Shown: one piece after another, positions 4,798 through 64,000 of the stretch
Layout of the letters: every line of letters starts with the position of its first letter
Numbering within the stretch: position 1 is the first letter of the stretch
Source of the DNA: a virus
Taxonomy: Duplodnaviria > Caudoviricetes
Length of the DNA stretch: 64,000 nucleotides
Strand: one strand, 5' to 3'
Virus record (IMG/VR): IMGVR_UViG_2551306498_000001
Coordinates: 5,042 to 69,041 of that record
Notes under the pieces: generated by a model
The model's database searches: none
Told to the model about the DNA's origin: nothing
What the model saw: the letters and a program-made list of their open reading frames with translations, nothing else
Position numbers and translations under genes: made by a program

Positions 4798-5050
4798 TAA
4801 GCATCTTAACCAACAGGAGAAAGAAGACTTGCTGCGCTTGTTTCATAAAATTCAGTATGGTCGAGTTTCGGAGGGGAAAGTTGGGTTCAACATGTACCTG
4901 GTTGTAAATACAGACGAAACTTACGCTGAAGACGTTGTGCAGATCTTACAGGAAAACGGTCATTGGGGTCCAACACACGATCCAAATCAAATCGAGTTTC
5001 GGCAAGAGGGAGATACGATGGAGCTTCCAGAAGTTAAGAATCCCGTCTGA
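4757..5050 (+). CDS. Hypothetical protein
   Basis: ORF with RBS GGGAGA; start assigned at ATG 4757. Confidence 0.65.
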   Translation: MKIKHTVIKNEDINKHLNQQEKEDLLRLFHKIQYGRVSEGKVGFNMYLVVNTDETYAEDVVQILQENGHWGPTHDPNQIEFRQEGDTMELPEVKNPV

Positions 5051-56075: not shown

Positions 56076-56130
56076 AAGTTAAGCAAAAAGAGCAGTAGGG
56101 TCCAACCTCACCGCTCTTTTTGCTTAACTT
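56076..56130. terminator. Bidirectional terminator
   Basis: 18-bp perfect inverted repeat between convergent genes. Confidence 0.8.
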
Positions 56131-56795
56131 ATCTCATAAATCAATTCTTCATTGTTATTCCGCACATTACCGACTTCCTTTTGTACCTCGTAAGCTCGCA
56201 TCTCAGACGCTTGATATGGCTTCAAAAGGCCAAGCAAAGACTGAACATTGTCATTATCTCTCCCAAGCCATTCCAACTCATCCTCGGGTCTTAAGATAAC
56301 CGGCATACGATTATGAATGTTTTCCATAAGACTATTTGGTTCAGTGGTGATAATGGTGCAAGTACTCAGTTTGTTACCGTCCGGATCTGTCCAAGTATCA
56401 TACAAGCCGGCAAGAGAGAATAAGCTGTCATCTTTCATCAGAATACGCATTGGTTGCTTTTCCGTTCCTTCCTTACGCCACTCATAAAATCCGTTCGTGG
56501 GGATGATGCAGCGTTTGGAGCTGATTAGACGTTTGAAGGAAGTCTTCTCGGTTAACGTCTCAGCACGGGCATTAATCATCTTGTTACCGATCTTGTCATC
56601 CTTGGCCCATGAAGGAACGAGTCCCCATCGGAGCGCACCCAATCGATTACCGTCTTTGCTGCCAATAATTGTAGGAATGTACTGCATGGGCGCTGCATTG
56701 TAATTAGGCTTGTAGTCAAAGCCATCAGCTATAGATGCATAGTACCTGTCCATTATCGCGTCTAAGGGGTCAGTGATCGTAAATCTACCACACAT
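56124..56795 (-). CDS. SOS response-associated peptidase (SRAP/HMCES family)
   Basis: Starts MCGRF (catalytic Cys2); 'YNAAP', 'WGLVP', 'INARAET', 'IHNRMPVIL'. Confidence 0.95.
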   Translation of the reverse strand: MCGRFTITDPLDAIMDRYYASIADGFDYKPNYNAAPMQYIPTIIGSKDGNRLGALRWGLVPSWAKDDKIGNKMINARAETLTEKTSFKRLISSKRCIIPTNGFYEWRKEGTEKQPMRILMKDDSLFSLAGLYDTWTDPDGNKLSTCTIITTEPNSLMENIHNRMPVILRPEDELEWLGRDNDNVQSLLGLLKPYQASEMRAYEVQKEVGNVRNNNEELIYEIS

Positions 56796-56831
56796 ACAAA
56801 GCACCTCCTGTATTGTCTTTACAATATATAA

Positions 56832-57689
56832 TCACACGATAAATTGATCAAACACAGGGATACGCAGCAAGCCTGATTTGGTCCAGTTGCGCATTTTAAC
56901 TCTGGCCTGAATACGAGGTTCAAGGTAAACGTTGTTCTTGTCTTCACCTGTTATCAGCTGCTGGCAAACTCCACGAAATGCTTGCTTATGTTTTGGACTC
57001 GGGCCATGCTCAATAATCCCTACCGGGCGCATCTTGCCTGACGGATCTGGAACAGCAGCGAGCCATCCAAACTCAGATTTCTTGTATCCTGTGATGAACA
57101 CATCAGCGTAGGACCAGTTAATAACCTTCAACCAATCCTTGGACCGTCTGCTGACGTACTGGCTGTCTTTGCGCTTGCCAACCACACCTTCCATACCCAT
57201 AGTCTCTATCTGAGCATATAGATCTTCTCCAGCCCCTTCTATATGGGGCACTACTCCAAAGTTAGGGGAAGGAAGAGGTAGGTTGTGTAGGATCATCTTG
57301 CGTTCCATAAGAGATAGCTTACGTAGATCCCGGCCTTGGTAGAAAAGAATATCAAATATAGCAAATGTGGCAGGCAGTTTATGAGTGAGCTGCGTTATCT
57401 TGCTGGTCTGCTTTGTACTGAATCTACTCATAACTGCTTCAAAGTCGTTAAGCCCTGTCTCTGGATCAGTGCAAGCGACCTCGCCGTCCAAGATAACATC
57501 AGAGTCAAACGGCAGAAGTAATTCCGGGTACTGACGGGTACAGTCGTTGTTGTGACGAGTGAATAGCCGGACTTCTCCGGCTTGTAGCGAATATATCAAC
57601 CGGTGACCGTCAACTTTAGGTTCAAAAATGAATTCTGAATGTGAGAAGGGACCCGGTGCTGTTCCTAATAACATAGGACTGATAAACAT
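56832..57689 (-). CDS. ATP-dependent DNA ligase
   Basis: Motif I 'EPKVDGHR', 'LDGEV', 'FDIL', 'EGVVGKRKDSQY', 'DWLK'. Confidence 0.92.
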   Translation of the reverse strand: MFISPMLLGTAPGPFSHSEFIFEPKVDGHRLIYSLQAGEVRLFTRHNNDCTRQYPELLLPFDSDVILDGEVACTDPETGLNDFEAVMSRFSTKQTSKITQLTHKLPATFAIFDILFYQGRDLRKLSLMERKMILHNLPLPSPNFGVVPHIEGAGEDLYAQIETMGMEGVVGKRKDSQYVSRRSKDWLKVINWSYADVFITGYKKSEFGWLAAVPDPSGKMRPVGIIEHGPSPKHKQAFRGVCQQLITGEDKNNVYLEPRIQARVKMRNWTKSGLLRIPVFDQFIV

Positions 57690-59098: not shown

Positions 59099-59324
59099 GT
59101 AAATACCTCCTAAGTTTTATGAAGATAATCGTGATACTTTACTTTCTAAAAATACCATATAATACAATGTAAAAATATGACATGTATCACGTCGTATTTA
59201 GTCTTTAGCACCTCTTGAGATTTACTAAAGTTAATTCGGTTAAGATGTTACTACTCTCTCTCCCATGAGTGCTACTATAAAAATACCTAGTCTGTGTGAC
59301 TGGGTATTTTTGTTGTTGATTAAA

Positions 59325-59336
59325 GAACGTATGTTC
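59325..59336. promoter_or_regulatory. LexA (Cheo/SOS) box within a sigmaA promoter
   Basis: AGAACGTATGTTCG (GAAC-N4-GTTC) between TTGATT (59316) and TATAAT (59340). Confidence 0.8.
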
Positions 59337-59363
59337 GCATATAATATTCATGAGGTGATTTAC

Positions 59364-59648
59364 ATGCTAACGGATTATCAACGAAAGGTCCTTCGGATCT
59401 TATATAACTACAAAGGTGGACGGCGTAGGTTTCCTACAATCCATGAACTTACAGTTAAAACGGGTAAGCATAAGCCGGAGGTCTTGGCTGCTCTGGACGC
59501 TCTTGTGGCTGCGGAATACATACATTGGGAAGACAGGTCTGACACGGCCAACATAGTGATCTTGGAAGGCTGGGAACGTGAGGGAGAACGTCCCAAGGTG
59601 GACCACACACCATCGTCTGGGAACATTGACTATTGGACTCAATATTAA
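59364..59648 (+). CDS. Small winged-helix-like SOS-inducible protein
   Basis: MLTDYQRKVLRILYNY...PTIHELTVKTGK; ATG 59364 after GAGGTG. Confidence 0.7.
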   Translation: MLTDYQRKVLRILYNYKGGRRRFPTIHELTVKTGKHKPEVLAALDALVAAEYIHWEDRSDTANIVILEGWEREGERPKVDHTPSSGNIDYWTQY

Positions 59649-59660
59649 GGGGGGCTTATC

Positions 59661-59993
59661 ATGCGTAGCAGACTGAAGGAAAACGGGTTGTATGAGACAT
59701 CCAGGATGATTATGCCTGAACATAGAGAGGCATGGTTGGCTCAATGTGAACAACAGAAGAGACGCGGTAAGCCAGATCTGGACGATCAAGAGATACAACA
59801 GATCAGTGAAGTTTTAGTGGAGTCCTATAGTAGTAGCCGCACAGTTGATCTGGTGTTATTCAGCCCATTCGATGATGAGGATGTTTCCGGGATAGTTGTT
59901 GGACTAAATACGTCTCATCATAGAGTTAAGTTGATGTTAGAAGAAGAATATAGATGGATTCAGCTTGCGGAAATTATATCTGCATCTGTATAG
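59661..59993 (+). CDS. YolD-like protein
   Basis: 'SRMIMPEHREA', 'KPDLDDQEIQQI'. Confidence 0.85.
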   Translation: MRSRLKENGLYETSRMIMPEHREAWLAQCEQQKRRGKPDLDDQEIQQISEVLVESYSSSRTVDLVLFSPFDDEDVSGIVVGLNTSHHRVKLMLEEEYRWIQLAEIISASV

Positions 59994-60075
59994 CATTTGT
60001 ATGAATTTGGCTATGGAATTGCCACGTTGTCCTTTATAATAACTTTAAAAGTTATTTTAATTAGGATGGTGCCAA

Positions 60076-60738
60076 GTGGGGGTAATTGCTTATATCTTGA
60101 TAGGTGCATTTGATGTATTTGCTGTCCTGGCACTGATGTTGAGGCTTTATCGTTTGCCAGTAAGGGATAGATTTTGGGAAAAAATCATCTTTTCTGTTCT
60201 GGCCGCAGTAGCATCATATTTCATAAGGATTGTAATTGGAATACCTATGATAGATACTGCTGTGTTAATGCTCCTAGTTATACTATTTATGCGTTATGTA
60301 CTGGAGATCAAACTATTTTACGCGGCTCTCATGTCTAGCGCAGGTATGAGCGCGTATGTTGCTATTCAATTAGCGTTAGCTATGGGTTACATGGCTATCG
60401 GTGGCAATGCGCAGGCCGTTATAGTTGAGACGCATGGATACAAAGTTCAATTGCTTCAAATTACAGCGATATGTATTGCGTACATTGTCTCGTCGATAAT
60501 GACGCTGTTCCGTTGGGGATTCTCATTTGTACCTCTACCACCGCACGATTTCAATATTGAATTGGACTACTCTAAGAACAAGGGTCTTTTGATTACAACT
60601 ATCGGTGTTCTAATCTTCATTTCATTCGCTATGGTGTTATTGCTGAATTACATGATTGTGTTGTTGGTTCCAGCAGCCTTGCTGAGCTTCGGTATATCAT
60701 ATTATTTTTCAAACCGGAGGGATCTCCAAATTGATTGA
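60076..60738 (+). CDS. Polytopic (~7 TM) membrane protein, AgrC-sensor-like, with no kinase domain
   Basis: 220 aa, almost entirely hydrophobic, 'GFSFVPLPPHDF' loop; first gene of the agr-like operon. Confidence 0.7.
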   Translation: MGVIAYILIGAFDVFAVLALMLRLYRLPVRDRFWEKIIFSVLAAVASYFIRIVIGIPMIDTAVLMLLVILFMRYVLEIKLFYAALMSSAGMSAYVAIQLALAMGYMAIGGNAQAVIVETHGYKVQLLQITAICIAYIVSSIMTLFRWGFSFVPLPPHDFNIELDYSKNKGLLITTIGVLIFISFAMVLLLNYMIVLLVPAALLSFGISYYFSNRRDLQID

Positions 60739-61219
60739 ATTGGTATCACGTAAGTTTGCAATGTCAGTTAAACGTGCATATCCGCCGGCCAATGAGGAAG
60801 TAATAGCTTATGAGGTGGGACGGCAACTAAATCTTTATTCTATTGTTATATTGACAATAGTTTTTTCATTGTTAATAGGTCAATTAATTGGGTCGATTGT
60901 TGCCATGTGCACCTTTGCATTTGCCAGAAAAATTACTGGTGGGTTACACCTTAAGTTGACTCTGTGTACAATAGTTACTGTGTCATTATTCATAATAGCA
61001 CCTGTAATTCCCATGAGCACATTTAGTGTGGTAATATTAAGCGTGCTAGTATCCTTTTTTTACATGGGACTTAGAAGAGAACAGTCACGTTGGTTGATAG
61101 TGATCGTCAGCCTGGCTAACGTGAACATTCTTTCTTCAGAAATTACACTTGTGCTTATGGCGCAATTATTGTTGGTATGGGCGGCCAAGATAAAAGGAGG
61201 TGAAAACGTACATGAATGA
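60731..61219 (+). CDS. agrB: AgrB-family peptide-processing membrane protein
   Basis: 'MIELVSRKFAMSVKR...EVIAYEV', 'FARKITGGLH...LC' carrying the catalytic His/Cys pair of AgrB; multiple TMs. Confidence 0.8.
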   Translation: MIELVSRKFAMSVKRAYPPANEEVIAYEVGRQLNLYSIVILTIVFSLLIGQLIGSIVAMCTFAFARKITGGLHLKLTLCTIVTVSLFIIAPVIPMSTFSVVILSVLVSFFYMGLRREQSRWLIVIVSLANVNILSSEITLVLMAQLLLVWAAKIKGGENVHE

Positions 61220-61343
61220 AAAAATTGCCAAAATGTTATCTCTTAAAATCGAGCAAGATGCAGCCGATAAAGTAGATAGCAAGAAAGTGTTCATCGGATC
61301 ACAACCAGTTCCGGAGGCGCTTAAAAAGAAGAAGCAAAAGTAG
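61212..61343 (+). CDS. AgrD-like autoinducer propeptide (43 aa, not in track)
   Basis: MNEKIAKMLSLKIEQDAADKVDSKKVFIGSQPVPEALKKKKQK; RBS AAAGGAGGTG; overlaps the agrB stop; P-x-x-L tail like AgrD. Confidence 0.65.
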   Translation: MNEKIAKMLSLKIEQDAADKVDSKKVFIGSQPVPEALKKKKQK

Positions 61344-61351
61344 AGTGAATT

Positions 61352-61717
61352 ATGGATGAATTAAAGCATCATGTGGCTGGATCAAGAACGGTTGATGGCA
61401 AAGAAATTGGAGAGTATGATTTCTATAGTTTAGCGGAACTTTGTTACATAGATATGTTCTCTCCTAAAAAGAACTACCTTGTCCCTCACTATCATACGAA
61501 GCAATTATCCTTCAGTGATATTCGCACGTTTGAAGCATCTAAAAAGCTTTATCCGAATCTGGTGCAATTAGATAGTGGTTTACTAGTTAACATGGATCAA
61601 GTAGAGAAGATAGAGGAAACGAGGTTCGGCCTAATGGCTCACTTTTACGGTGGACTTCAACGAGAAATAGCGAAGAACAAGATCCACTTGGATTTTGTTA
61701 AAGACAAGCTGAAATGA
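61352..61717 (+). CDS. Stand-alone LytTR DNA-binding domain protein (no receiver domain)
   Basis: 'LVQLDSGLLVNMDQVEKIE' matches the LytTR 'F.R.H.S.LVN...I..I' region; 121 aa. Confidence 0.65.
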   Translation: MDELKHHVAGSRTVDGKEIGEYDFYSLAELCYIDMFSPKKNYLVPHYHTKQLSFSDIRTFEASKKLYPNLVQLDSGLLVNMDQVEKIEETRFGLMAHFYGGLQREIAKNKIHLDFVKDKLK

Positions 61718-61747
61718 ACCCGAGTTCTTCGAGAATCGGGTTTTTTT
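61717..61747 (+). terminator. Terminator of the agr-like operon
   Basis: AACCCGA...TCGGGTT followed by a T run. Confidence 0.8.
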
Positions 61748-61971: not shown

Positions 61972-62190
61972 TTAGGGTTCGATATGCCAGATATACAAAT
62001 CCTCAGCGTGGCAGTCGAGGATTTTCGATATAAGAACAGCGGCTTCGTAAGGCATTGGCTCACGATTATTGGCCCAGTTAGAGATACGTTGTGGCGTATA
62101 CCTGGTTCTCCGAGATAACTGTGCTTGAGTCGTACGAGCCTCCTTAATCCTAACTTTAAGCAGACATCTGCCCCGGGAGATTTTACTCAC
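61972..62190 (-). CDS. XRE-family HTH regulator (72 aa)
   Basis: 'TTQAQLSRRTRYTPQRISNWANN...ISKILDCHAEDLY'. Confidence 0.85.
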   Translation of the reverse strand: MSKISRGRCLLKVRIKEARTTQAQLSRRTRYTPQRISNWANNREPMPYEAAVLISKILDCHAEDLYIWHIEP

Positions 62191-62311
62191 TTCTTATTCT
62201 CCTTATATGGGGTAAGACTATTTAGTTTCGAGAGACATTATAACATGGTGGTAATATCAGGTAAACCCTATACTATGACAGCACATCACATACATCGTGG
62301 GAGAGATAATT

Positions 62312-62509
62312 ATGCAAAGTCCGGAGAGAGATTTTTTCCAAATAAAAGATACTGACAAATTCAAATTTATTCTTGAAGGAGGAACCGTAGAAGAGTTGAA
62401 AGTAGGGAACATGTTGGAGAAAGAGTGGGAGTATGATGGGAAGAAAATATCCAATAAAAACTTAGTGAAAATTCTCAATTTTATTAAGAACATAACCTTA
62501 GCGGATTGA
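62312..62509 (+). CDS. Hypothetical protein
   Basis: MQSPERDFFQIK...; RBS GGGAGA. Confidence 0.55.
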   Translation: MQSPERDFFQIKDTDKFKFILEGGTVEELKVGNMLEKEWEYDGKKISNKNLVKILNFIKNITLAD

Positions 62510-62686
62510 GGCCAATAAAATGCTTTGGATCAAAGTTTCCTAAGCTATTTATTGACCGCATTTTGACCGCGCATTCTGAAGAAATAGGAATAATTAAAAG
62601 AATATATAGTTTATGATTTTTATGAAAACCGTAGTGAATACTATATAAAAGTATTTAAAAATACGTAGAAAATGATACTGGCTTTG

Positions 62687-62740
62687 TATAGAACACAAGT
62701 CCACCAATGGGAACGCGATCAATATATTACGTTGTACTAA
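62687..62740 (+). other. glnA: Attachment-site core: isolated 3' end of glnA
   Basis: Translates YRTQVHQWERDQYITLY*, matching the Bacillales glutamine synthetase C-terminus (B. subtilis ..RTQVHPWEREQYMSQY). No upstream glnA; next to the integrase 3' end. Confidence 0.8.
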
Positions 62741-62778: not shown

Positions 62779-62844
62779 AACCGGGGGACGTTTTGGGAAG
62801 ATTGCACTTCTATTGAGGTTGCGTCCCCCAAACGTCCCCCGGTT
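62779..62844. repeat. Candidate integrase arm-type sites (GGGGGACG repeats forming a 19-bp inverted repeat)
   Basis: AACCGGGGGACGTTTTGGG (62779-62797) / CCCCAAACGTCCCCCGGTT (62826-62844), 1 mismatch. Confidence 0.6.
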
Positions 62845-64000
62845 TTTGATTTTCTGATCCAAAAATACGGGAAGTGTACTCTTCATACTTATCAATGTTC
62901 CGCTTTTCTAGCTTTTTAGAAATATGAGCATACACATCTGATGTAATTTGCACACTGCCATGCCCAAGCCGCTCTTGTACAAATTTTATATCAGCCCCAG
63001 CTTCAAGCATCATCACAGCATAGGTATGTCTCAAGGAATGAATTGTTAATTCCTCACTCAAACCAGCCTTTCTCAAAATCCTCTTTGAAGCATTAAAGAG
63101 ACTGGATTTAGGCATCGGACTACCATCATTCCTGCACAAGACCAGATTTAAATCGTGTCTGTACATGGACTCCCCTAAATTGATCTTATTTTGATTCTGC
63201 CATGAAGCATGGTACCTCAAATCATTTATGATGCCGTTACTTATACTAATGGTGCGTGTAGATTTTTTGGTTTTTGTATCTCCGAAAAGTTCATCCTCGT
63301 TTGCGGCTTGAAAATCGAGTGTTTCATCCACGCGGATCGTCTTTTCTTTGAAATTGATATCCGACCACTTGAGAGCGGCAGCTTCACCTTTTCGTAAACC
63401 CGTTTCAATGAGCACTTTGAAGAAAATCCAATAAATGTACGCATCACCTCGAGCCGTATGAAGAAATTGGGGAATGTCCTCTGAATCAATGAATTGGATC
63501 GTCTTCTTTTTGTACTCTCCTTTAATAATTGAACCTTTACATGGATTTCGTAATATTTCCCCTTGAATCAAAGCATGCTCTATGGCTGAGTATACAGTGG
63601 AGTTGATGATCTCGATCGTGCGCTTGCTGAGTCCCTTTTTAAATAAAGAGTCCAAAAAGACTTGATACATATCTGGTTTCAAATCCTGAAGCATAAGACG
63701 CTTAAAGTAAGGTTGGATATGGGTGTTTAAGTTATTCTCATGTTGTTTGATCGTATTCTTTCGTACAACTCCTTTTTTGTAGTTATCTATCCAATTTCGA
63801 ATGTAATCGACCAAAGGAATGTCTGTCTGTTCAAACCCTTGCTTTAGCTGCCTTAAAAATTCAGCAGCAGCTAGTTCAGCCTCTGGTTTAGTTCGAAAAC
63901 CAGCCTCGGATTTCTCTTTTTGTTGTTGAGTGAACGGATCGGTGTACTTTAACCGATACCTCCAGCCACTTTTCAATTTCTTGAAACTTGCCAATTTCAT
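62810..64000 (-). CDS. int: Tyrosine integrase with N-terminal arm-binding domain
   Basis: 'GWRYRLKY...EAGFRTKPEAE', 'TGLRKGEA', 'HSLRHTY', 'RLGH', 'DVYAH'. Confidence 0.95.
   Translation of the reverse strand: MKLASFKKLKSGWRYRLKYTDPFTQQQKEKSEAGFRTKPEAELAAAEFLRQLKQGFEQTDIPLVDYIRNWIDNYKKGVVRKNTIKQHENNLNTHIQPYFKRLMLQDLKPDMYQVFLDSLFKKGLSKRTIEIINSTVYSAIEHALIQGEILRNPCKGSIIKGEYKKKTIQFIDSEDIPQFLHTARGDAYIYWIFFKVLIETGLRKGEAAALKWSDINFKEKTIRVDETLDFQAANEDELFGDTKTKKSTRTISISNGIINDLRYHASWQNQNKINLGESMYRHDLNLVLCRNDGSPMPKSSLFNASKRILRKAGLSEELTIHSLRHTYAVMMLEAGADIKFVQERLGHGSVQITSDVYAHISKKLEKRNIDKYEEYTSRIFGSENQKPGDVWGTQPQ

Follow-up and report, generated by a model that had tools for sequence, protein, structure and literature searches.

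In arbitrium, the AimR-AimP-AimX system of SPbeta-like phages, a linear hexapeptide is imported by Opp and bound by a cytoplasmic TPR receptor. Peptide signals are reportedly also read at the membrane; for SdpC-SdpI-SdpR of Bacillus subtilis, Ellermeier et al. are said to have described in 2006 a secreted peptide that is sensed by a polytopic membrane protein, which in turn sequesters a soluble DNA-binding protein, SdpC reportedly being a toxin and SdpI also its immunity protein. In the LytTR regulatory systems (LRS) HdrRM and BrsRM of Streptococcus mutans, a membrane protein inhibits the regulator, and autoregulation proceeds via direct repeats in the operon's own promoter (PMC6193735). Since 2014, the occurrence of agr genes on phages has been cited as hinting at a use of host-type quorum sensing by phages. 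Hargreaves (2014) noted the cassettes of phages Davies, Emery, and Abouo, whose membrane proteins have no kinase domain (PMC3901668), and later reviews restate that phage agr sets come without a regulator, which is the usual objection raised to them. Here we describe a four-gene, agr-type cassette in a 64,000-nucleotide stretch of the IMG/VR virus record IMGVR_UViG_2551306498_000001 (positions 5,042 to 69,041 of that record; the whole stretch is called the window hereafter), which belongs to a family of cassettes that have their own output protein, a stand-alone LytTR protein.

We read this cassette as a prophage-borne, kinase-free Agr-type peptide-signalling module, and assign this reading a probability of roughly 0.55. 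As a sequence, the cassette is not new, but adds one more member to a type of cassette known from isolated phages; its wiring (no kinase, no receiver, and a lysine in place of the cysteine) is an undescribed variant of agr signalling, and our literature searches returned no paper with functional data, nor any in which the lysine core or the LytTR partner is recognised. A compact, kinase-free system of four genes raises the question of how a peptide signal reaches DNA without phosphorylation, while an invariant lysine standing in for the ring cysteine makes a definite chemical prediction, namely a lactam or a linear peptide.

The cassette, its AgrB, and its precursor peptide

The listing of open reading frames (ORFs) and the raw sequence give four translationally coupled plus-strand genes (60076-61717) closed by an intrinsic terminator. 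An earlier note, made from the sequence of the window alone, had placed such an operon here, and its coordinates, tight coupling, and terminator were confirmed. Lengths of products are given in amino acids (aa).

60076-60738, plus strand: gene for a seven-transmembrane (7-TM) protein, 220 aa, GTG start, ribosome-binding site AGGATGG
60731-61219, plus strand: AgrB gene, 162 aa, TTG start, 8-nt overlap with the 7-TM stop, product containing GGLHLKLTLC
61212-61343, plus strand: peptide gene, 43 aa, strong ribosome-binding site AAAGGAGGTG, 8-nt overlap with the agrB stop
61352-61717, plus strand: LytTR gene, 121 aa
61719-61747, plus strand: intrinsic terminator closing the operon, an inverted repeat (hairpin CCCGA...TCGGG) followed by T7

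When compared with four related alleles, all four genes proved to be under purifying selection, with ratios of nonsynonymous to synonymous substitution rates (dN/dS) of 0.04-0.31, given only where dS could be estimated; the four ORFs are therefore real coding genes. Ratios were 0.17-0.26 for the 43-aa ORF and 0.09 (a single comparison) for the LytTR gene, while the 7-TM gene, at 0.05, is the most constrained of the four. No Rfam match was found near the cassette, megablast of 56-64 kb of the window against the phage collection gave no match, the ESM Atlas returned unnamed clusters only, and sequence-profile searches of the PDB with the LytTR, 7-TM, and AgrB alignments produced matches at chance level only.

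The product of the second gene scores 32.5 bits (E 6.7e-08) on the Pfam AgrB model (PF04647), above its curated cut-off of 23, and matches phrog_10353; PF04647 is likewise carried by all of its close homologues. Residues R66, G70, G71, H73, and C79 are invariant across 17 cassette AgrBs, and align with the same residues of chromosomal Paenibacillus AgrBs, the spacing between H73 and C79 being six residues in the cassette subgroup instead of seven. The AgrB-like identity put forward in the earlier note is thus borne out, with both His and Cys kept. Judged by its sequence, this protein is a bona fide AgrB-family membrane peptidase of a short form, for which peptide cleavage is predicted. No other AgrB was found in the host genome.

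The 43-aa product of the third gene consists of an N-terminal helix, a core (K-V-F-I), and a tail (G-S-Q-P-V-P-E-A-L-K-K-K-K-Q-K), and has no Cys. In almost all related loci its gene lies between agrB and the LytTR gene, and the motif K-x-φ-φ-G-[A/S]-x-[P/K]-x-P-x-[E/A]-L-K (φ, hydrophobic residue) is common to 34 distinct homologous peptides; this set was chosen on K...G, and in the loci left out the motif is likewise evident from unfiltered listings. The residue following the invariant Lys is T, V, S, E, F, G, or I, and the position directly before it is occupied by K, M, A, R, E, F, N, G, or L across the family. Cys occurs in 3/34 peptides and stands directly before the invariant Lys in 1/34; in these 34 sequences, the Cys or Ser that starts the five-residue ring of AgrD is not conserved. 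Because the family has no conserved Cys or Ser, a classical (thio)lactone, which the earlier note had named as the known product of AgrB maturation, is unlikely, and the mature peptide would be linear, or else closed by way of the Lys side chain. A Ser-lactone through D-S-K-K(-V-F-I-G) was considered and rejected, as the Ser is missing in close relatives (locus L007 and phage Harrison). An AgrD-like precursor, also proposed earlier, is supported by its position after agrB and by its charged Pro/Leu tail, but not by any curated AgrD model (no Pfam or NCBIfam family was matched at E up to 1) nor by a ring Cys or Ser. The Abouo homologue is named 'cyclic lactone autoinducer peptide' in RefSeq. 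No second AgrD-like gene was found elsewhere in the genome.

The canonical agrBDCA locus of the polymyxa group provides a register for the cassette peptide. It encodes an AgrD with ...G-I-C-F-G-L-F-Y-E-P-V-N-P-K, of which ICFGLF is the experimentally determined autoinducing peptide (Pp-AIP) of P. polymyxa (PMC12180512); this AgrD was found at sites obtained with a degenerate DNA pattern for ICFGLF, most matches of that pattern being due to chance. One such canonical set, agrB-agrD-agrC-agrA (198, 57, 448, and 259 aa; L097 3160-5999) with ICFGLF in its AgrD, lies inside a lantibiotic cluster in polymyxa-group genomes. The characterised Paenibacillus AgrD (ICFGLF|YEPVNPK) has Pro at +3 and +6 after the cleavage site, and the tail of the cassette peptide matches it in register. 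The peptide of viral contig L049 (N-C-K-E-V-I-G-L-P-Q-A-P) would, if cleaved before Gly, hold a canonical five-residue Cys ring in the same Pro register; in this register the invariant Lys falls at ring position 2, and any residue may stand where Cys is usual.

We infer from these alignments that AgrB cleaves the precursor before the invariant Gly. His73 and Cys79 would remove the charged C-terminal tail, most likely by a cut after the second hydrophobic residue, just ahead of the Gly, and the short peptide released would have as its core the invariant Lys and three further residues (K-V-F-I in the window). That the cassette makes a short, AgrB-processed peptide is highly probable. Arithmetic on known structures shows that an amide between Lys-Nζ and the C-terminus over K-x-φ-φ would close a ring of 16 members, equal in size to that of the classical thiolactone; for such a product, the AgrB acyl-enzyme would be resolved by the invariant lysine, which lies one position C-terminal to the usual cysteine. 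We regard the Lys-lactam as an unlikely outcome.

The membrane protein and the stand-alone LytTR protein

The AlphaFold2 model of the 121-aa LytTR protein (predicted local distance difference test score, pLDDT, 87) consists of the LytTR fold alone, with the receiver domain absent. All of the top 10 Foldseek matches are LytTR domains (probability 1.00, TM 0.61-0.74), including those of B. cereus (3d6w), AgrA (4g4k/3bs1/4xqj), and ComE (4cbv), and the Pfam LytTR model (PF04397) is matched by 12/13 aligned family members, with a best value of 6e-13. Distant cassettes encode a tandem LytTR protein of ~240 aa, likewise without a receiver. In existing records the gene carries the annotation 'peptidase' (Harrison gp41, L023 7294-7650; Abouo gp47, L024 6312-6680; PHROGs phrog_15081), a label that may explain why reviews state that phage agr sets have no regulator.

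The 7-TM protein is modelled by AlphaFold2 as seven long helices (pLDDT 76), and counts of Lys plus Arg per loop in 17 homologues place the N-terminus outside, and loops 1, 3, and 5 together with the C-terminus inside. Cytoplasmic loop 5 holds the conserved motif GFSFxxxPPHDF. The protein matches phrog_15604 (2.6e-42), but has no Pfam or NCBIfam match and no protease or transporter signature. With respect to fold, Foldseek against the PDB gave no match at E<=0.001, and the best Z of a wide VIA-align search (8.0) is within the chance range for helical models. A profile search of 1.84 billion representatives yielded a family of 260 clusters; the relatives listed (150 of the 260) are all stand-alone proteins of 80-291 aa, mostly 215-240 aa, with none of kinase length or fused to a kinase. 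Comparison with the sensor half (N-terminal 230 aa) of in-genus AgrC returned an hhalign probability of 1.3%. A kinase-less AgrC was consequently rejected as an identity for the 7-TM protein, given the absence of kinase-length relatives among those listed and of profile similarity to in-genus AgrC.

Homology was detected (hmmsearch 6e-15, hhalign 97%) between this family and membrane proteins encoded ahead of chromosomal agrB-agrD pairs that have neither LytTR nor kinase. Within the phage-type subfamily, the PPHDF loop and LytTR occur together in 54 loci, and 11 loci without a detected LytTR are also without the loop. Loop residues S150, H157, and D158 are missing in the LytTR-less subfamily that accompanies AgrBD.

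As a candidate for both the peptide receptor and an anti-activator of LytTR, we propose the 7-TM protein. The exported peptide would be sensed at its outer face, the 7-TM protein would retain the stand-alone LytTR protein at the membrane or let it go, without phosphorylation, comparable to LRS (HdrRM/BrsRM) or SdpI/SdpR, and the freed LytTR protein would act on promoters. For this role, we put the chances slightly below even. It is important to note that the 7-TM protein could instead be a biosynthetic or export partner of AgrB and AgrD, responsible for leader removal or transport, which in staphylococci is the role of MroQ or an exporter; in this case the peptide would still be made, while LytTR would be a plain regulator controlled by other means. 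Such a partner is suggested by the homologues preceding chromosomal agrB-agrD pairs that have neither LytTR nor kinase, by the lack of similarity to the in-genus AgrC sensor domain, and by the dN/dS of the 7-TM gene, the lowest in the cassette, since receptors of diversifying signals usually vary. However, the protein carries no signature of a protease or transporter and no Pfam match, S150, H157, and D158 are missing in the LytTR-less subfamily despite its AgrBD, and the cassette would be left without a sensor in a host that has no other agr genes. We consider the partner role unlikely, and prefer the receptor role in what follows.

Recurrence, prophage setting, and allelic exchange

Searches with tblastn detect the 7-TM protein in the P. 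larvae phages Harrison and Paisley and in the Brevibacillus phages Abouo, Davies, and Emery, and in the annotated Harrison and Abouo records all four genes adjoin the lysogeny module (Harrison: cassette, two small genes, integrase, helix-turn-helix (HTH) gene, Cro; Abouo: integrase, cassette, regulators, CI-like, Cro). In Harrison/Paisley (HARRISON_38-41) and Abouo (gp44-47)/Davies/Emery, the genes stand in the same order as in the window and next to the lysogeny module, with a ~42-aa peptide and a ~120-aa LytTR protein; the 7-TM proteins are 26-38% identical to that of the window over at least 87% of their length, and the peptides share the motif (Harrison, K-V-F-L-G-S-Q-P-L-P-K-E-L; Abouo, K-F-G-L-G-S-P-E-I-P-E-E-L). 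Host species, phage backbone, and integration site (glnA) differ between these phages and the window prophage, the hosts of the cassette including soil and bee-associated Paenibacillus and Brevibacillus. PHROGs contains three of the cassette proteins (phrog_15604, phrog_10353, and phrog_15081), and 28 IMG/VR contigs carry the cassette, mostly at contig ends. An AgrB relative is present in 42/93 species genomes of the genus, the full cassette type in 17 fetched loci, and the 7-TM family in 16/401 genomes sampled across the class, spread over three families. One contig scan with a smaller alignment used a narrow pattern and found only 5 loci.

Kinase-less agr cassettes are also common in Paenibacillus chromosomes. 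In four genomes of the polymyxa group, the same cassette type forms an islet of 3 kb that is flanked by pspA-like genes and by moeA/mobB; two copies are intact and two decayed. The cassette, whose recurrence in prophages or in host core genomes the earlier note had suggested surveying, is thus not exclusive to phages. Decaying copies (L084, L086, and L011) show a split AgrB, a fragmented or frameshifted LytTR, or a truncated LytTR, and indicate that the cassette is lost as well as gained. A second layout, located by rsmD/coaD (L053-L057), comprises a 210-aa 7-TM homologue, AgrB, and a 43-aa AgrD ending in ...SYVYVYQGDTPEELLK, with neither kinase nor LytTR. A third, in the glnA-lexA region (L083 2918-4641, L087 3309-5025, and L090 3147-4868), comprises a 216-aa membrane protein, AgrB, an AgrD ending in ...ASLSWIHSPEPPEELLK (...S-L-S-W-I-H-S-P-E-P-P-E-E-L-L-K), and a LytTR protein of 131-134 aa that scores above the Pfam cut-off; the L083 copy adjoins a phage-type cassette. 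Given these several kinase-less chromosomal layouts, kinase-free wiring is a general trait of agr-type loci in the Paenibacillaceae, of which the phage cassettes are one branch.

The surroundings of the window cassette contain the following features, with the attachment (att) sites included.

Window -5214 (5.2 kb left of the window): attL, at the end of intact glnA
59265-59648, plus strand: ORF (127 aa) of a winged-HTH protein, weak Pfam HTH_36/DnaD_N, phrog_3502
59661-59993, plus strand: YolD-like protein (Pfam YolD 5.7e-18), upstream synteny in loci L004-L022
59995-60075, plus strand: putative leader/promoter region of the cassette, defined by alignment
61972-62190, minus strand: XRE/Cro-type HTH protein, 72 aa, Pfam HTH_26/HTH_3, convergent with the cassette
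62297-62509, plus strand: unknown ORF, 70 aa, divergent from the XRE gene, no family match
62685-62740, plus strand: attR, a copy of the last 17 codons and stop of glnA
62810-64000, minus strand: tyrosine integrase of a neighbouring remnant element, right of attR, 38% identical to the prophage's integrase

The att sites are a direct repeat of 43 bp exact (56 bp with two mismatches), present in only two copies in the 6.66-Mb genome. To the right of the glnA end at attL follow the integrase gene int1 and a gene for a 244-aa CI-like repressor, both on the minus strand, and then a Cro-like gene; terminase, portal, major head, tail, and endolysin genes lie between the repeats. As the repeats bound it and phage genes surround it, the cassette is cargo at the right end of a ~68-kb Paenibacillus prophage, ~940 bp from attR. 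Its location within the phage, before the XRE gene and att, agrees with what was first proposed and with its presence in isolated phages, and it is not host core DNA lying outside attR. In the excised circle, the cassette would sit just upstream of attP and the phage's own integrase. The integrase adjacent to the cassette, by contrast, is not that of the phage: the gene at 62810-64000 is right of attR, and thus outside both prophage and cassette, whereas the phage's own integrase lies by attL, ~5 kb left of the window. The gene at 62810-64000 is left over from a second element at this glnA 3'-end att site (tandem occupation). A search with 12-mers over 150 kb gave no third att copy. Beyond it are an APH-family kinase gene, an unknown ORF, an insertion sequence (rve) transposase gene, and then the host genes aldH, lexA, and metH.

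Among the neighbouring genes, the winged-HTH gene likely has its true start at ATG 59367 (93 aa), behind a sigma-A-like promoter identified by a promoter scan (TTGATT-18-TATAAT, 59316-59345) and preceded by a hairpin with a 16-bp stem (59277-59313); its product is 70-91% identical in related loci despite their diverged cassettes. No terminator was found between the YolD-like gene and the cassette. A minus-strand promoter (62265-62237) lies upstream of the XRE gene, and the identity of the XRE protein tracks the divergence of the cassette (93% in L005, 78% in L007, and 40% in L010). The 70-aa ORF was found only in a near-identical IMG/VR contig (L025). Between the lysis region and the cassette, a minus-strand gene pair (56124-57689) encodes an SOS-response-associated peptidase-like protein (phrog_1599) and an ATP-dependent DNA ligase, and is 85-91% identical in P. 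amylolyticus prophages.

The leader contains an invariant TATAAT (60035-60040) without a good -35, a palindromic element TGGC-N9-GCCA (60008-60024), and, between the -10 box and the ribosome-binding site, the perfect palindrome ATAACTTTAAAAGTTAT (60039-60055). In the relative locus L011 this palindrome reads ATATCTTTAAAAGATAT, with both arms changed and the symmetry kept; it could be an operator or a hairpin of the 5' untranslated region. In a P. amylolyticus prophage (L059), the backbone has 82-91% nucleotide identity up to 59744, and positions 4904-4980 are 93.5% identical to window 59995-60071 over 77 nt, with homology ending exactly at the 7-TM start codon; the cassette proteins that follow are 31-38% identical, the XRE protein 40%, and the LytTR protein is a tandem one. 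Since the flanks are conserved while the alleles have diverged, the cassette and the small XRE gene behave as an exchangeable specificity module behind a conserved promoter. The pattern looks like replacement of the cassette by recombination at conserved flanks, and this swapping of alleles in a conserved backbone resembles pherotypes.

A pherotype-like pattern could reflect a dedicated, arbitrium-like channel between phages, in which a peptide from lysogens or infected cells, read by the 7-TM and LytTR proteins, would bias lysogeny or restrain induction. Several observations are consistent with this: i) the cassette of the circular phage adjoins attP, the integrase, and the CI/Cro switch, and in Harrison and Abouo it stands beside the lysogeny module, ii) allelic diversity in a conserved backbone is reminiscent of aimR/aimP, and iii) the small XRE gene co-diverges with the cassette. 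However, the same cassette type is found between host genes outside prophages, and no LytTR sites were found near the cassette or the phage switch, other than a single AT-rich pair located upstream of the HTH gene, which does not exceed chance expectation. While a role in phage communication is plausible, a dedicated phage-phage system is doubtful, and it is similarly doubtful that the output of the cassette bears on lysogeny or induction.

Mobility and exchange could also be those of a toxin-immunity or exclusion system, in which a cationic peptide would harm sensitive cells or incoming phages, the 7-TM protein would confer immunity, perhaps with SdpI-like signalling, and LytTR would regulate. 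A self-contained four-gene unit that moves between phages and islets with allelic replacement is like bacteriocin-immunity or defence cassettes, the cassette occupies the accessory region of the prophage after the lysis genes and beside other cargo, and LytTR regulators and LRS control streptococcal bacteriocins (PMC6193735). The conserved core of 4-5 residues and the removable AgrD-like tail, however, point to a product the size of an autoinducer and not of a bacteriocin, and the peptide has no bacteriocin-type leader such as a double glycine. We judge such a system improbable.

A kinase-free signalling module thus remains our preferred reading, against which the following results must be set. 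The LytTR protein of the window reaches only 17.4 bits on Pfam LytTR, below the cut-off of 22.6, so that the LytTR identity proposed in the earlier note is upheld by fold matches and by homologues, and not by the score of the protein itself. Direct repeats of the LytTR type (9 bp, period of 18-24 bp) were not found upstream of the cassette, which, together with a promoter conserved across very different LytTR alleles, argues against simple autoregulation and suggests that the cassette promoter is under the control of a backbone or host factor. The PPHDF loop was dropped as a marker of partnership with LytTR, because chromosomal cassettes of the third layout have LytTR without the loop. The 7-TM protein may serve in peptide processing, export, or immunity and not in sensing, given its homologues beside LytTR-less chromosomal agrBD. 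Finally, the function need not be specific to phages, since chromosomal islets, some decayed, hold the same cassette type. It is also quite unlikely that all parts of the most far-reaching version hold jointly, that is, that a lysine-resolved 16-membered lactam is read by the 7-TM protein, that bare LytTR is released without phosphotransfer, and that the phage thereby sets lysogeny or induction; if true, both the Agr peptide and its receptor would be of a new kind.

Comparison with known systems

With canonical agr (Staphylococcus; the Pp-AIP locus of P. polymyxa, PMC12180512), the cassette shares the His and Cys of AgrB, a small precursor that combines an N-terminal helix with a charged P-x-x-L tail, and an output of the LytTR type. 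It differs from agrBDCA in having neither histidine kinase nor receiver, and in having an invariant Lys in place of a conserved ring Cys or Ser. Of the phage-borne sets, that of the Clostridioides difficile phage phiCDHM1 (PMC3901668) is likewise carried by a temperate phage, with agrB and agrD near the lysogeny and integrase region; phiCDHM1, however, encodes a full AgrC kinase and no regulator, whereas the window cassette encodes a LytTR regulator and no kinase.

Similarity to LRS (HdrRM and BrsRM; PMC6193735) lies in a stand-alone LytTR protein that is co-operonic with a membrane protein, with no phosphotransfer parts. In contrast to LRS, where the regulator gene comes first, the membrane protein gene comes first in the cassette, an AgrB/AgrD pair is placed between the two, and the membrane proteins are unrelated in sequence. 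The cassette AgrB and AgrD would supply a defined ligand, which is missing in LRS, while the direct repeats of LRS promoters were not found at the cassette promoter. SdpC-SdpI-SdpR is comparable in the proposed sequestration without phosphorylation, although the protein families are unrelated.

Arbitrium resembles the cassette in placing a phage peptide and its cognate receptor next to the lysogeny module, and in its allelic pherotypes, secretion and sensing being predicted for the cassette. The two differ in that the cassette uses AgrB maturation and a LytTR DNA-binding part, and in that sensing would take place at the membrane. No TPR/RRNPP family was detected in any cassette or flanking protein; the cassette is therefore unlike arbitrium, as the earlier note had anticipated. 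Should the module control lysogeny, temperate phages would possess a second system of communication by peptides, one with no mechanistic relation to arbitrium.

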